The notes under the pieces: model-generated
Database searches by the model: none
Told to the model about the DNA's origin: nothing
What the model saw: only the letters and a program-made list of their open reading frames with translations
Part shown: positions 1-15,474 of the stretch, piece after piece
Position numbering within the stretch: the first letter of the stretch is position 1
How the letters are laid out: each line of letters opens with the position of its first letter
Translations under genes and position numbers: made by a program
From: a virus
UHGV virus genome: UHGV-0168751
Strand: one strand, 5' to 3'
DNA: 15,474 bases

Positions 1-44
1 CACGTAAGGAGTCGTCGGCAGCGTCAGATGTGTATAAGAGACAG
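1..44. other. Illumina Nextera adapter remnant: P5 tail fragment CAC, i5 index GTAAGGAG, read-1 adapter TCGTCGGCAGCGTC, Tn5 mosaic end AGATGTGTATAAGAGACAG
   Basis: Exact match by eye to the known Nextera read-1 adapter and mosaic-end sequence; the same string is present reverse-complemented at 15424..15474. The ATG at 28 and the MCIRDS N-terminus of the track ORF 28..1344 are adapter-encoded. Confidence 0.95.
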
Positions 45-1344
45 CCCCTGGATTATGAGTTTTGTTTTAGACGACGAAATTCATTTCTTTGCTACGAAAG
101 ACTACGTCGCACGTTGCGGGCGTGAAAACTTTGAAGCACGACTCGTCAAACGAGCTCAAGAACTGCTTTCTAAAATCGCTTTTCGTGGGAAAGACGAGAA
201 CGACAACCCTATCATTAAATACAAGAACGTTATCGATGGCTACAAAATCTTCGTTTACGAATGCCTCAATTCAGGTTGTTGTATTCAACGGATGTTTGAA
301 GAAATCCACCCACGACTCCCTGATTTATTAGTCGCATGGAACCACGAGTTCGATATTTCACGTATGTTAGAAGCTTTAGAAGCTGCGGGAATTCCACCGG
401 AAGACGTCTTCTGTCACCCTGATGTGCCGAAGCAGTACCGTCGTGTCTACTTTAAGAAAGACGAAGCATCGAAGAAAACGGAATCAAAGTCGTTAACAAA
501 AGCGCCTTCACAACAGTGGCACATACTTTACTGTACCGCATCGTTCTATTGTGTAGATGCAATGTGTCTATTCCGTTCATTGCGTGTTCATGAGGGTCAA
601 CGGCCTTCTTACAAACTTAATGCGATTCTGGAAACAGAGTTAGGTTTAAACAAGTTAGACTTACCGGAGCTGCCTTACGAGGAGAAACTGGAGTGGCACT
701 TAAAAGCACAAAAAGACTTCCCGTTAGAGTATTGCGTTTATAACATCTTCGATAACCTGATGATTGTTCTGCTCGATAAAAAGACGAACGATTTGTCTTC
801 AGCTATTTCGGTGTTGGCCGGTTATTCGATGTACGATATCTTCCCTTCTCTACCAAAACGAATTTGTATTGCTTACACCTATTACCTTTATGAACAAGGA
901 CTCGTTATCGGATGTGTAGGTAGTGCGATGCGTAATGACTTCGATAATGAGGTTATTGGTACAGACGGTTGGATTGTTACGCTCACGGCGTGTATGAACG
1001 CAGAGAACGGATTACGGAACATCATTAAGGAAGTTGATGATTTCTACACGGCTTTCCGTGGTCAAACCGCAGATGCCGACTTAACTCAGGCTTACCCATC
1101 AGCAACAAACATGATGAATCAGTCTCGTGAAACAACGTTAATCGAACTGTTAAGTATTCATGGTGTTCCTGAAGAAGTCCGTCGTCGAGTCGGGATTAAC
1201 CTTACTGCGGGACGTGTTAACGCAATGGAAATCGCAACGGATTTCTTCTTGTTACCTGATAAGAATACCGTGCTGGAAGCTTTCCTACGCCGTCAAGGAG
1301 AGACAATCACCGATCCTTTTGAATACATCAAAACCGTCCACTAA
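45..1344 (+). CDS. Putative 3'-5' exonuclease-like protein (DEDDy/RNase D-like N-terminal domain, unknown C-terminal part); 5' end probably truncated by the fragment boundary
   Basis: Frame is open from the first genomic base; first Met at 55. Exo I-like LDDE at 67..78, Exo II-like N-x-x-F-D (WNHEFD) at 337..354, LG-x-x-K...W...Y-x3-D pattern with YNIFD at 739..753. Stop TAA 1342..1344 is followed by a terminator hairpin. No polymerase motifs seen downstream. Motif match is by eye only. Confidence 0.45.
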
Positions 1345-4559: not shown

Positions 4560-6518
4560 CTAGCCAATAACGGCGTATTGATCCCTCAGATACCGCTGAA
4601 TCTCGGACACCACTCGAGATAGCTCGAAAAAAACGCGGTCCGGTGAGATCGTCACGATACCACGGTAAGTGCCTTCTTTCTCGCCTTCATGGGTCTTACC
4701 GCAAGACGGACATTTCTGACCCATATACCCGAACACCGCCAAACGACTACGTTCGTTATAGTTCGCCGCAGCAACTTCAAAGTCGTACACATAATGACGA
4801 TCGGAAGACAGTTCCTCCAGAATCTGGATAATCTTATCGGTATCCGTTTCTGTGGTACTTACTTCGCGAACTTCATCGTCCTGCACAACTTCTTCAGTTA
4901 CCGTGATGGATTCCACCATATACGCGTAACGCGTTAGACGACGTGCTTCGGTGATGAGACGAAGATGATCTTCACGCTCACGTTCGGTGCCTTTCTCAGC
5001 CAATGCAGATGTGGAAGCGGTGTTGTTCTCTTCCACCCAACGTTCTGTATTATCAAAGAACTTACCTAGTGTGGAACGACCGAATTTAACGGTAATACCG
5101 TCGCTTACAAATGTCGCAGACGGATCTTTCAGGTGTTCTTCAACAAACTTACGTTGCTCCAAACGGCTGATCGTAACGTCTTCTTTACCACGCTGTTGGG
5201 CCCACAGGCTACGCTGCATATCGGTGTAAAGTGACGTACCCATGCGAATACAACGGGCCAGGTTCAAGCGGATGTCTTCTTGATAACCACAACCTTCATG
5301 GCCACAGATTAACGTCCACGGTAAGCCGCCAGGATATTTCGCTTGCATCACACCAATCAACAGCAACCAGTAATCCGCAAGGTCAATAGTATCCAGCAGC
5401 ACGGTCTTCATGTCGTTCCCTTCGCAATCCAACGTACAGTCGGTGACGAAGCGTAACGCAAATTCAACCATATGGCTTAAATAAATACCTGAAGACGCAG
5501 ATAGCATCAGACCATAAGTCTGCATACCAATTTTTGCAGTTTCCAGGGTCAGCTGAATATCAAAGTCACAGATTTCGCGTTCTAATGGTGCACGGAAACC
5601 GACAAAGATACCTGTTGCTGGCAACCATACCCAGTTAGGGATACCTGACTTACGACGACGGCGAAGTGCCGCAATAGCGCCAGAATGTTGGCTGTTACGT
5701 GGCGTAATGAAACCCACCGGCTTAGACATTCCCGGCAACTGCACACGCTGTTCCCAGGCGGTGTCTTCACGAGACAGCGCACCGTCAAACGCTTGCTGTT
5801 GGTTTTGTAAACGTGGTGGCATCATGTTCAAAGCACGATACAAACGCTCGTACAAATCACGTTGTTCTTCCGATTTAAACAGAAGACGACCATCGCTACC
5901 ACGTGGAATGCTGGAGAAGAATTTCTTCAGTTCACTACCGATAAGGTTCGGATCTTCACGTAAGCCAATCAGCGTATTGAAGTCGGTCAGGATGCGGCCA
6001 GGATCGTCTTCAGGCAATTCGCTGATTTCTTCGTGGGGTGCTTGTGTACCAAAATTCACCCGATGTTCGGATGGCTGTTCTTTTACCGCCGGTGACGCTT
6101 CAGGCTCGTGGTCAGCAGCAATCTGCGGGTCTTCAATCGCTTGAGGAACATAAGGTTCTTCGGCTTTCTTCTCTACCACCGGCTCAGGCTTGTGCTCAAC
6201 AGGTGCAGCAACAGGCTGCGGAATAACCGGTTCCACGACAACAGGTTCTGGTTGAGTAATCGTCACTGCCGGGGCAGGTTCTTCTTCATACACCGGCTTC
6301 GGTAAAATGGGTTCTTCAGCAGGTTTTACTTTTACAAGATTGTGATACATCTCTTCTGCTTGAGCAAAAGAAAAATGGGGATTACTGCGTTTAATAGCCA
6401 TAATCCCATCGTCAGCGGACAGTGTAGACAAGTCAACCTCAGGTACAATGACGTGAGGTGTGTCTTCCTGAGTCCGACGACGCCCATTACCTGGGCGTTG
6501 GTCTAAAGTATCTGACAT
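4560..6518 (-). CDS. Hypothetical protein (652 aa) with Pro/Glu/Val-rich low-complexity N-terminal region and two Cys pairs near the C-terminus
   Basis: ATG at 6516..6518 with AGAGGG SD; start is 3 nt from the upstream stop (TAATTAATG). Residues about 64-150 are PEPVV-type repeats; CGHEGC and CPSC motifs later. No recognisable catalytic motif. Confidence 0.7.
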   Translation of the reverse strand: MSDTLDQRPGNGRRRTQEDTPHVIVPEVDLSTLSADDGIMAIKRSNPHFSFAQAEEMYHNLVKVKPAEEPILPKPVYEEEPAPAVTITQPEPVVVEPVIPQPVAAPVEHKPEPVVEKKAEEPYVPQAIEDPQIAADHEPEASPAVKEQPSEHRVNFGTQAPHEEISELPEDDPGRILTDFNTLIGLREDPNLIGSELKKFFSSIPRGSDGRLLFKSEEQRDLYERLYRALNMMPPRLQNQQQAFDGALSREDTAWEQRVQLPGMSKPVGFITPRNSQHSGAIAALRRRRKSGIPNWVWLPATGIFVGFRAPLEREICDFDIQLTLETAKIGMQTYGLMLSASSGIYLSHMVEFALRFVTDCTLDCEGNDMKTVLLDTIDLADYWLLLIGVMQAKYPGGLPWTLICGHEGCGYQEDIRLNLARCIRMGTSLYTDMQRSLWAQQRGKEDVTISRLEQRKFVEEHLKDPSATFVSDGITVKFGRSTLGKFFDNTERWVEENNTASTSALAEKGTEREREDHLRLITEARRLTRYAYMVESITVTEEVVQDDEVREVSTTETDTDKIIQILEELSSDRHYVYDFEVAAANYNERSRLAVFGYMGQKCPSCGKTHEGEKEGTYRGIVTISPDRVFFELSRVVSEIQRYLRDQYAVIG

Positions 6519-13574: not shown

Positions 13575-13898
13575 ATGTTAGACAATTTTATTACCCTAGA
13601 AGAATTCATACCTGCGCCTTACACCACGACGTGGAAAGTGATGCACGATTACACAGACTATCTGCGTAAACACCCGAAAACTAAAATAGAAAATGTTGAC
13701 CCACGCTACAGCTGGCCTGAAGTCCACAATTTCTACGCCTACTGTAAACTCAAAGGTTACGCCGATATCATTATCTATCCGATGATGCTATTAAACGGGC
13801 TAGAAGACCCCATGAATTTCACCCCTGAAATCACGCAGCTGATCGTTCCCGACGTCGGGACGGTCAGTGAGATTATTAGCACCATCGGCGACTATTAA
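13575..13898 (+). CDS. Hypothetical protein (107 aa), the only internal plus-strand gene
   Basis: ATG at 13575 with AGGAA SD; ends at TAA just before the 13902..13930 hairpin. Divergent from the beta-like gene and convergent with the 459-aa gene. Confidence 0.5.
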   Translation: MLDNFITLEEFIPAPYTTTWKVMHDYTDYLRKHPKTKIENVDPRYSWPEVHNFYAYCKLKGYADIIIYPMMLLNGLEDPMNFTPEITQLIVPDVGTVSEIISTIGDY

Positions 13899-13901
13899 AA
13901 A

Positions 13902-13930
13902 AAGAAGGGACCGTGTCCCTTCTTTTATAT
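13902..13930. terminator. Bidirectional intrinsic terminator between convergent genes
   Basis: Stem aagaagggac/gtcccttctt (13902..13911 and 13915..13924) with a short loop, flanked by an A-run upstream and a T-rich run downstream on the plus strand. Confidence 0.65.
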
Positions 13931-13935
13931 TTCAC

Positions 13936-15315
13936 TTAACGCGTAAACGCTGAAGTTGCAATTCCACCGAAGCTGTTTTGGGATTGTCCACCAAAACTGT
14001 TGTTCGTTGCAAATGCTGAACTTGTGCTAAACGCGCTAGTACCCCCTACATTCCCGCCAAAGGAATTACTTCCTCCACCAAAGGTACTTGCCAAAGAACC
14101 CCCGGTATTTCCCCCACCGAAATTACCCTGGCCTCCGAATGGGGACATCTTACGCTCACCACCAAACGCATCCACAACAGAGATTCGACTTACCATACCG
14201 TTGGCAGGGTTGGTCGTGCCGTGTTGTTCAGCGTAGCGTTGCATCGCCGGTGTCAAATTCCCATAGGGACTATGTGCGGCCATGCTACGCTCACGGGCGC
14301 GGAAGAATTCCATCGGATCAGACTTATCTGCCTTATCTGCGTCCGATGCACGTTTCTGCGGGATCTGCTGCGGAGCCTGCTCACGATCAATACGGAAATC
14401 ATGCGCTGTGGTATCCCGTTCAGGACTGTCAGAGCGTGGACCAGTGTTATACGGTAAGGTCTGAATGACGTTATCGTAAATTTCCATATTGTCCAGCTGA
14501 GAAATCCATTCATCTTCTAACGGTCGTAATGGGGAATGGTCACGCAACCCTTTAACGACGTTGTTATAGTTTACAACGTACTGTGCCCAACCGCGTGCTA
14601 AACAACCGAAGTACGGACGAGAATCATTAGACCCTGTTACACTCGGATACCAACCAAATACGGTGGTCAGTAAACGATGAATAATGATTTTGTCCTGCTT
14701 ACGTTGAAGTTTCGCAGAGAAGTACATTGCAGTACCATCTAACGATTCTTCTTCAAACATATTTCGATAATTGGCAACACGGTTAAATTTCACACCGTCA
14801 ATAACTAAATCGGATGCGATAAAGAGCTGAGTAATCTTGTGCTTTTTATCCTTTTCCAGTTGGGCGTAGACAAATGCTTTAACCGCTTCCCAGGATTTCA
14901 CCAAACGTTCGTCAAACGTCGGATCTTTCATCCCTTCACAAATCTGTTCTGTTAAGAACTTCTTGTAAGAAGCGGAACGTACCGCTTTGCCGCTTGCTCC
15001 GGTTTCCAAAATTGCATCGATTAGCGCAAACGAACGAATGAACAGGTTCGCATTGATGGATTTCTTCAGAAAACGAATTGTCCCAGATTCGCCTGCCAAT
15101 ACCGATTCGCATAACGGATGAAACGCCTGGCATTCACGACCATCATCGTCTTCCATGCCGCGCTTAATCATCGCTGGGGTAGGAAGCGCCAGACGGCGCT
15201 TCACTTTGTTATACGTAAACTCTGCCGGTTCACCACCGTCACGAGTAAGTAAATCGTTTTCGAAATCGTATCCTTGTGATTTAAGAAACGATTTGTAGAA
15301 TTCAATAATTTTCAT
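13936..15315 (-). CDS. Hypothetical protein (459 aa) with Gly/Ser/Phe-rich low-complexity C-terminal tail of repeated SFGG/FGGG units
   Basis: ATG at 15313..15315 with AAGGA SD 8 nt upstream; the last 76 residues (13939..14166) are a run of FGG-type repeats; terminator follows the stop. Confidence 0.7.
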   Translation of the reverse strand: MKIIEFYKSFLKSQGYDFENDLLTRDGGEPAEFTYNKVKRRLALPTPAMIKRGMEDDDGRECQAFHPLCESVLAGESGTIRFLKKSINANLFIRSFALIDAILETGASGKAVRSASYKKFLTEQICEGMKDPTFDERLVKSWEAVKAFVYAQLEKDKKHKITQLFIASDLVIDGVKFNRVANYRNMFEEESLDGTAMYFSAKLQRKQDKIIIHRLLTTVFGWYPSVTGSNDSRPYFGCLARGWAQYVVNYNNVVKGLRDHSPLRPLEDEWISQLDNMEIYDNVIQTLPYNTGPRSDSPERDTTAHDFRIDREQAPQQIPQKRASDADKADKSDPMEFFRARERSMAAHSPYGNLTPAMQRYAEQHGTTNPANGMVSRISVVDAFGGERKMSPFGGQGNFGGGNTGGSLASTFGGGSNSFGGNVGGTSAFSTSSAFATNNSFGGQSQNSFGGIATSAFTR

Positions 15316-15337
15316 TTAAGAGTCCTTGATTAATCTT

Positions 15338-15423
15338 TTACTCGCCGAATGCACCAAAGCCAGTTACTGGCGCAGGAGTTGACATATCGCTGCTACCAAA
15401 GCTGCCGAAACTACCCAGGGTTG
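15338..15423 (-). CDS. 3' end of a gene truncated by the fragment boundary; encoded C-terminus is Gly/Phe-rich (TLGSFGSFGSSDMSTPAPVTGFGAFGE)
   Basis: Frame open from the last genomic base (15423) to stop TAA at 15338..15340; next gene starts 22 nt downstream in the minus sense. Confidence 0.5.
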
Positions 15424-15474
15424 CTGTCTCTTATACACATCTGACGCTGCCGACGACTCCTTACGTGTAGATCT
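15424..15474. other. Illumina Nextera adapter remnant, reverse complement of the left-end adapter (mosaic end, read-1 adapter, i5 index CTCCTTAC, P5 fragment GTGTAGATCT)
   Basis: CTGTCTCTTATACACATCTGACGCTGCCGACGA followed by CTCCTTAC and GTGTAGATCT; exact inverted copy of 1..44 extended into P5. Confidence 0.95.

Follow-up and report, generated by a model that had tools for sequence, protein, structure and literature searches.

FG-type tails on a PicA homologue and its gp70-family neighbour are a lineage-specific variant of co-varying, predicted disordered tails in nucleus-forming jumbo phages

The DNA analyzed here is a stretch of 15,474 nucleotides of the viral genome UHGV-0168751 (hereafter, the window), which encodes on its minus strand two consecutive proteins ending in low-complexity tails built around Phe-Gly (FG) dipeptides: a complete protein of 459 amino acids and, immediately upstream, a second protein of which only the C-terminal end is present. 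The window comes from a nucleus-forming jumbo phage of the Chimalliviridae, of the SPN3US/phiEaH2-like type. On the basis of profile homology and gene order, we assign the upstream gene to PicA/Imp1 (phiKZ gp69, PhiPA3 gp63) and the 459-amino acid protein to the phiKZ gp70/PhiPA3 gp64/Goslar gp173 family. Both tails are predicted to be intrinsically disordered, and the grammar of the tail tracks between these two proteins, which are associated with the shell and encoded in one operon. The FG flavour is specific to this lineage, others having Leu or Met/Gln versions, and does not indicate a homology to nucleoporins. We propose, with a probability of roughly 0.5, that the tails may be attachment arms resembling those of chimallin, which would bind weakly, through hydrophobic contacts, to a partner common to both proteins and/or to one another.

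The original prediction had held that the function of these proteins could not be assigned from sequence, which was too pessimistic because profile homology and synteny give PicA/Imp1 for one and the gp70/gp64 family for the other. Among isolates, the Erwinia phages phiEaH2, Stratton and Asesino come closest, with 76% nucleotide and 72% protein identity. The 459-amino acid protein matched the phrog_3520 profile with an E-value of 1.6e-124, a profile also matched by phiKZ gp70 (4e-122), and it matched phiKZ gp70 directly in a BLASTP search (7e-12). It is 63% identical to the SPN3US protein YP_009153326, which is listed as a PhiPA3 gp64 homologue by Enustun et al., and a tblastn search with it returned 153 chimallivirus records. 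The window holds 27 codons of the upstream gene, and the profile homology of this gene was analyzed using the near-identical protein of locus L004 and the database protein P0060 (568 amino acids). The L004 protein matched the phrog_3141 profile with an E-value of 1.5e-127, and phiKZ gp69 with one of 2.7e-179; the size of about 570 amino acids is also that of PicA/Imp1. The order of the genes is strictly kept from SPN3US-like phages to phiKZ: gp67-like, gp68-like, gp69-like, gp70-like, a small antisense open reading frame (ORF), nvRNAP (non-virion RNA polymerase) subunits β and β', and a helicase. In the window and in 30 other loci, the gp70-like gene directly follows the gp69 homologue and precedes nvRNAP β. 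In L004 to L007 and all other loci, PicA is flanked by the gene for the gp68-like nvRNAP subunit on one side and by the gp70-like gene on the other, the window showing the gp70 side only. No PDB sequence match was found for the folded domains, and no Pfam domain, J domain included, in either protein. As a separate observation, gp70 and PicA segments occur in scrambled order in database proteins from several records of the Salmonella phages SPFM (P0044–P0048 and P0093–P0096), which points to assembly or annotation problems in these records.

For the phage nucleus, the main open question is the passage of folded proteins across its chimallin shell, and PicA/Imp1 is the only essential, conserved import licensing factor known, acting by a mechanism for which a pore, a flippase or an unfoldase has been considered. 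In phiKZ, PicA forms puncta at the shell, and when its surface is mutated, specific proteins are no longer imported into the nucleus. The published cargo-recognition surfaces are on the folded part of the protein, and a C-terminal low-complexity tail is not mentioned. PhiPA3 gp63 (PicA) and gp64 (the gp70 homologue) localize to the nuclear shell, are not found in virions, and co-purify with ChmB; phiKZ gp70 is listed among the nuclear proteins. In the literature we searched, the coverage of which is incomplete, nothing was found on FG, nucleoporin-like or low-complexity tails on PicA, Imp1 or gp70, and we found no published description of the gp70 and PicA tails.

The tail of the 459-amino acid protein (amino acids 384–459) reads FGGERKMSPFGGQGNFGGGNTGGSLASTFGGGSNSFGGNVGGTSAFSTSSAFATNNSFGGQSQNSFGGIATSAFTR. 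It contains 7 FGG motifs and 10 Phe residues with a mean spacing of 8 residues, and consists of 28% Gly, 17% Ser, 13% Phe, 9% Asn and 9% Thr. Only 4 residues (5%) are charged, G+S+N+T+Q make up 67%, and the entropy is 3.15 bits, as compared with 4.03 bits in the remainder of the protein. When the whole protein was shuffled 20,000 times, seven FG dipeptides within any stretch of 76 amino acids, a density of about one FG per 11 residues, were never reached (mean 1.6, maximum 5). In the tail itself, Phe is followed by Gly more often than expected from composition, the observed count being reached in 61 of 20,000 shuffles. The fragment of the PicA homologue ends in ...LGSFGSFGSSDMSTPAPVTGFGAFGE, and the C-terminus of its reading frame is ...TLGSFGSFGSSDMSTPAPVTGFGAFGE followed by the stop codon; in the window lineage this tail comprises about 30 amino acids with 4 FG. 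The Gly/Phe-rich tails on two consecutive proteins are therefore present where the original prediction had placed them, and its wording of SFGG/FGGG/NFGG units was accurate. Tandem Repeats Finder detected no tandem repeat in the DNA under the gp70-family tail, indicating that the repeats exist only at the protein level. A recent expansion by replication slippage was rejected on the same ground. When three tails were searched against Pfam, nucleoporin FG families included, there was no match at E≤10.

We then examined whether the tails are genuine and constrained. The same two genes are present in four independent IMG/VR contigs, and the same ORFs with their tails in many Logan and ENA assemblies. 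The complete upstream gene (567–568 amino acids) is found at the same position in L004–L007 and ends in the same FG tail, and the 27 PicA residues of the window are the exact C-terminus of P0060. Comparison of the window with the L004 protein, which is 97% identical, gave synonymous substitution rates (dS) of 0.63 to 0.72, near saturation, with 0.72 in the tail, and ratios of nonsynonymous to synonymous rates (dN/dS) that were 0.009 for the folded domain, 0.014 for the linker and 0.079 for the tail. All 10 Phe residues of the tail are conserved in L004, and in a relative of 85% identity 11 Phe are retained while the spacers differ and shift. Judging from these rates, the gp70-family tail is under purifying selection. 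The DNA of the tail contains stops in every other reading frame and the ORF is open in all relatives. A frameshift or alternative-frame origin was rejected because of these stops and the dN/dS of 0.08 in the annotated frame, in agreement with the expectation that the tails are not translation artefacts. Altogether, these results exclude frameshift, assembly and slippage artefacts and mark the tails as translated coding sequence.

Structure prediction placed both tails outside the folded part of the proteins. AlphaFold2, run for the 459-amino acid protein with 33 homologues, gave predicted local distance difference test (pLDDT) scores of about 90 for amino acids 1–285 and about 35 for the tail. 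The linker in between (amino acids 291–383) is mostly of low confidence, with short predicted helices at 334–346 and 356–365, and ends in the conserved motif ...ISVVDAFGG. For full-length PicA, a confident fold was obtained for amino acids 1–531 (predicted template modelling score, pTM, 0.77), and a pLDDT of about 35 for amino acids 535–568. Such segments are rare in the genome: among the 621 ORFs of phiEaH2 (243 kb), the 3 top-ranked Gly-rich and charge-poor segments are those of the gp70-like, PicA-like and ChmC-like proteins, and the fourth is an LGG/IGG insert inside AFQ96548. In this 243-kb genome, Gly-rich uncharged segments are confined to this operon plus one or two other proteins, which bears out the earlier view that they are unusual in phage proteins. 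AFQ96548 itself (L034 2051..3682) is a third protein of the LGG type, in which the segment is internal (SGGGLGGGGIGGSGGGI) and is longer in the homologue SPN3US_0078 (L041 301..1977). It belongs to phrog_8185, occurs only in SPN3US-like phages, and adjoins the gene of a gp55-like nvRNAP subunit.

To place the FG flavour within the family, the four operon proteins were read in 30 loci and in additional database homologues. A low-complexity tail was present at the end of every gp70 homologue examined (n = 62 distinct). In the last 70 amino acids of these proteins, charged residues make up 7.5% (26% in the body) and G/S/N/Q/T/A/P 68% (35% in the body). The hydrophobic residue that dominates the tail, here called the sticker, was Leu in 41 homologues, Phe in 11 and Met in 7, indicating that FG is a minority variant of a conserved architecture. 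The window clade has FG as its sticker; phiEaH2, SPN3US, Kwan and Machina-like phages have LGG, LLGG or GNSLLD, Derbicusvirus has NPF, and phiKZ, RAY and Psa21 have M/Q/P. In one metagenomic lineage (P0039) the repeats are SLFG/GLFG-like: NNSLFGTSNNGGLFGSSGGGGSLFGN. The FG flavour is not the conserved feature, a point on which the original prediction does not hold. Its concern that homologues might lack such tails did not materialize, all 62 being tailed. The Met/Gln/Pro-rich tails deserve mention of their own: those of phiKZ gp70 (L003 7328..8629) and of the homologues in L015–L017 and L022–L023 have at least 100 amino acids (e.g. QMQMPGMMPQMQMPGMMQQGYPQQ), and in phiKZ-, RAY- and Psa21-like gp70 they contain up to 24% Met or 45% Gln, a rare makeup for a protein of a bacterial virus.

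The tail of PicA comprises 30 to 50 amino acids and is Gly-rich with FG or LG stickers in SPN3US-like phages, and Q/P/N-rich in phiKZ. The gp68-like nvRNAP subunit encoded next to it has no tail, while the gp67-like protein (ChmC/Imp6) carries the published N/G-rich tail. With respect to the latter, the ChmC/Imp6 proteins of L001–L033 have at their ends an acidic-aromatic tip preceded by a G/N/Q/Y-rich linker, the tip being for instance ...DFDDDIPF in Proteus phage 10 (L017 549..1259) and ...DDDIPM in RTH11 (L018 1..819). The C-terminus of SSB, the single-stranded DNA-binding protein of E. coli, has the same acidic-aromatic tip. By analogy, this suggests that the ChmC/Imp6 tip may mimic an SSB-interaction motif on a Whirly-fold nucleic-acid binder.

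Tails of PicA and gp70 resemble each other within a genome. Both have FG stickers in the window clade, versus LGG in both proteins of the sister genus represented by phiEaH2. The sequence GNSLLDD is common to both proteins of pEa_SNUABM_6, SGNSIL is found in both Caitlin proteins and GNSLL in both proteins of relatives, and the pair GGTFNF/GGSFNF of one metagenomic phage is replaced by GGTFNY/AGSFNY in its relative. Over 17 lineage clusters, the contents of Gly (r = 0.81, p = 2e-4) and of Gln (r = 0.50, p = 0.02) in the PicA tail correlated with those in the gp70 tail. PicA and gp70 shared 2.43 3-mers within a genome versus 1.42 across genomes (p = 8.5e-4, 23 representatives), and the BLOSUM62 similarity of the C-terminal hexapeptides was 1.0 within versus -3.9 across genomes (p = 4.5e-4), results that are supportive and not decisive because the permutations ignore phylogeny. 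The motifs shared by the two tails use different codons, and no shared DNA word is longer than expected by chance. Hence it is in the protein sequence that the likeness is maintained. Gene conversion was rejected as the source of the shared motifs for the same reasons, the codons being different and the longest shared DNA words being at chance level. The proposal that such tails reflect a common partner, a flexible linker or an assembly role fits both the predicted disorder and this sharing of motifs within genomes.

We consider that these observations could be explained as follows. Each protein has a folded domain and, behind it, a predicted disordered, almost uncharged sticker-and-spacer tail, which in the window protein presents a Phe about every 8 residues in a Gly/Ser/Asn/Thr matrix. 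The tails would be flexible arms for attachment at the chimallin shell, multivalent and of low affinity, and would hold both proteins in one shell-associated assembly, via a common hydrophobic partner and/or via each other. The most likely partner would be the tail-binding grooves of the lattice formed by the chimallin ChmA. The protomers of this lattice contact their neighbours through extended segments at the N- and C-terminus, which dock on them. The grooves are proposed because the C-terminal segment of ChmA has a similar grammar and an aromatic-x-hydrophobic C-terminus. The putative ChmA of SPN3US-like phages is AFQ96749 in phiEaH2 (L037 37469..39325), with homologues in L052–L063 (phrog_8316). 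Its C-terminal segment is uncharged and G/S/N-rich with F/L stickers, and ends in SNFKL, TDYKL, SDFNV, SSFNF or GYFNM. Many PicA and gp70 proteins also have aromatic-x-hydrophobic ends (NFKL, GFKL, TFNF, SFNF, GFSF, GFKW), and in one genome PicA, gp70 and the putative ChmA have, among the three of them, the ends SFNF, SFNF and GFSF. In phiKZ, the ChmA tail is M/G-rich and resembles the gp70 tail. ChmA and the two proteins have flexible C-terminal extensions of similar type, but the ChmA tails can be aligned across genera whereas those of PicA and gp70 turn over. If the tails are attachment arms, this would explain how accessory proteins are integrated into the lattice.

Several points, in addition to the neglect of phylogeny in the permutations, weigh against this proposal. 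Neither for Phe nor for Leu was the content of one tail significantly correlated with that of the other over the 17 clusters, and the claim of co-variation consequently rests on Gly and Gln content and on the sharing of k-mers and C-terminal motifs. PicA has no tail in RAY, AH06, Proteus phage 10, Goslar, Eowyn and P0049, and because of its absence in these six phages the tail cannot be essential to the core function of PicA. When phiKZ gp70 was assayed in E. coli, it was not pulled down with Imp1, which disfavours a stable direct complex of PicA and gp70 but not weak multivalent contacts. AFQ96749 is assigned to ChmA only by its size, the style of its termini and the RNAP β gene downstream, and it showed no similarity to phiKZ gp54/ChmA (L049 3649..5529) by tblastn, phmmer or BLASTP. 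The comparison with ChmA covers SPN3US-like relatives and phiKZ, outside the FG lineage, and the extreme C-termini of the window lineage, AFGE and AFTR, are not of the F-x-aromatic type. Finally, the mechanism as a whole is inferred from sequence.

The tails would function in the manner of sticker-spacer low-complexity domains, and the nearest characterized case is that of ChmC/Imp6 (phiKZ gp67), which is encoded in the same operon, is associated with the shell, and has a Gly-rich, uncharged and disordered tail of 50 to 70 amino acids. In PhiPA3, this tail is required for the formation of condensates in vitro. The ChmC tail differs in being N/G/Q/Y/R-rich, in having the acidic-aromatic tip, and in standing behind an RNA-binding Whirly domain, tip and Whirly domain being present in the gp67-like neighbours of PicA and gp70 in related loci. 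The PicA and gp70 tails have instead aliphatic or aromatic stickers and no acidic tip, and neither protein has a Whirly or other known nucleic-acid-binding domain. An import factor and its shell-associated neighbour carry selected, predicted disordered and matched tails, and in a genome of 243 kb hardly any other segments of this kind exist apart from that of ChmC. This makes the tails a testable lead on how proteins attach to, or act at, the phage "nucleus", and the natural series of F, L and M flavours across phages offers ready-made compensatory variants.

A different and doubtful explanation is that PicA, gp70 and possibly further proteins of the shell use their FG, LG or MQ tails to line or fill a pore for import in the chimallin lattice as a selective phase, a cohesive meshwork that would exclude bulk proteins and let cargo recognized by PicA partition through, in convergence with the FG-nucleoporins. 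The density of FG, the uncharged G/S/N/T/Q spacers, the predicted disorder and the literal SLFG/GLFG-like repeats of some relatives such as P0039 are in line with it, as are the role of PicA as an import licensing factor found in puncta at the shell, the phase separation of ChmC of the same operon through its tail, and an import mechanism that in the published work is still open between pore, flippase and unfoldase. The FG domains of nucleoporins have many repeats and hundreds of residues, typically well over 100. The tails considered here, with 76 and about 30 amino acids, are short, most lineages use Leu and not Phe, and several nucleus-forming phages have no PicA tail; moreover, phiKZ gp70 is reported within the nucleus and not strictly at the shell, and Pfam gave no nucleoporin FG match. 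Cohesive FG-nucleoporins, the general features of which are taken here as background, are the nearest analogue in appearance. Like those of the GLFG/SxFG type (Nup98/Nup100/Nup116 and the N-terminus of Nup62), the window proteins have multiple FG in a disordered region with uncharged polar spacers, attached to a folded anchor, and belong to families with members at the boundary of a DNA compartment. They differ in the length of the tails, which are 5 to 10 times shorter, and in the replacement of Phe by Leu or Met in most relatives, and the chimallin shell is a protein lattice, not a membrane pore, with no transport-receptor system known. Membership in the class fails on homology, as there is no Pfam membership, on the length of the FG domain, and on the conservation of Phe across orthologues. 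A convergent nucleoporin-like gate formed by PicA, gp70 and perhaps chimallin, with the sticker type co-evolving among the partners in each lineage, would be a striking convergence with eukaryotic nuclear pores; we consider it unlikely.

It is also improbable that the tails are entropic spacers or neutral low-complexity drift, whose composition would result from mutational ease and genomic background and not from an interaction. The codons of Phe and Leu are one step apart, the sequence of the tails turns over fast between genera, nonsynonymous change is 6 to 9 times faster in the tail than in the folded domain, and the Phe and Leu correlations were non-significant at the cluster level, as drift would predict. 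Against it stand the dN/dS of 0.08 with every Phe kept at saturating dS and the constant, uncharged sticker-spacer grammar of all 62 homologues. Drift would also have to produce, with different codons, motifs shared specifically by two proteins of one genome, and to do so in a genome in which such segments are confined to the operon and one or two other proteins.

A chaperone handle, in which the tails would act like the Gly/Phe (G/F) region of DnaJ-class proteins and engage host DnaK/Hsp70 to unfold or hold import cargo, is very unlikely. The composition does resemble the G/F linkers of J-domain proteins (DnaJ/DNAJB), and an import model of the unfoldase type has been put forward. However, in those proteins the Gly/Phe-rich segment is an inter-domain linker, whereas here it is a C-terminal tail, and neither protein has a J domain or any other Pfam domain. 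Since most lineages carry Leu or Met/Gln tails, a function specific for G/F cannot be the conserved one. Virtually no weight attaches to an artefact, whether by frameshift, mis-assembly or a chimera with adapter: adapter is indeed present at both ends of the window and the assembly was not cleaned, but the tailed ORFs recur in the independent contigs and assemblies, the substitutions follow the pattern of a coding frame, and the adapter begins only after the 27 genuine codons identical to P0060.

The coordinates of the two genes, of their parts and of the adjacent elements are collected in Table 1.

Table 1. Features at the gp70-family/PicA end of the window
Feature	Position	Strand	Basis
Gene for the 459-amino acid protein, assigned to the phiKZ gp70/PhiPA3 gp64 family	13936..15315	-	ORF and translation, phrog_3520, BLASTP, synteny
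N-terminal folded domain, amino acids 1–290 of the gp70-family protein	14446..15315	-	
Variable linker, amino acids 291–383 of the gp70-family protein	14167..14445	-	pLDDT 35–61, alignment, dN/dS 0.014
FG-type low-complexity tail, amino acids 384–459 of the gp70-family protein	13939..14166	-	Composition, shuffles, pLDDT, dN/dS
PicA/Imp1 (phiKZ gp69) homologue, 3' end: 27 codons and stop	15338..15423	-	Translation, identity to the P0060 C-terminus
Hairpin and T-run between the convergent gp70-family gene and ORF 13575..13898	13897..13924	.	Read from the sequence
Presumed Illumina adapter: P5 end, i5 index GTAAGGAG, Nextera/Tn5 mosaic end	15424..15474	-	Non-phage sequence

In the fragment of the PicA homologue, the genuine codons occupy 15341..15421 and the stop codon 15338..15340. 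The sequence beyond it, which we take to be an Illumina adapter, reads AGATCTACAC GTAAGGAG TCGTCGGCAGCGTCAGATGTGTATAAGAGACAG. The identical adapter (the same i5 index and mosaic end) is found in inverted orientation at positions 1..44 of the window. Because adapter occupies 15424..15474, the cut in the PicA gene is technical and not biological. Adapter is present at both ends of the window, the source assembly not having been trimmed of it. Two genes are truncated in this way, that of PicA and a DNA-polymerase-like gene (phrog_3011), and the start of ORF 28..1344 (MCIRDS...) comes from the adapter.

The hairpin listed in Table 1 (GAAGGGAC-ACG-GTCCCTTC, followed by TTTTTTT) begins 12 nucleotides past the stop codon of the gp70-family gene. 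It was not among the hits of a consensus scan, and from its sequence it is probably a bidirectional intrinsic terminator. The hairpin and T-run are common to the gp70-like gene and to ORF 13575..13898, which encodes on the plus strand a protein of 107 amino acids (phrog_3455) and lies antisense between the gp70-like gene and nvRNAP β. In all chimallivirus loci that were inspected, which range from SPN3US-like phages to 201phi2-1 and Goslar, this ORF keeps its position and orientation. It is annotated as a baseplate wedge protein in RTH11, which looks like a mis-annotation. Elsewhere in the window, at 4560..6518 on the minus strand, a 652-amino acid protein (phrog_8054) contains an N-terminal stretch of about 180 amino acids rich in P/E/V/A (...EEPILPKPVYEEEPAPAVTITQPEPVVVEPVIPQPVAAPVEHKPEPVVEKKAEEP...); this low-complexity region is charged and of a different kind from the FG tail.

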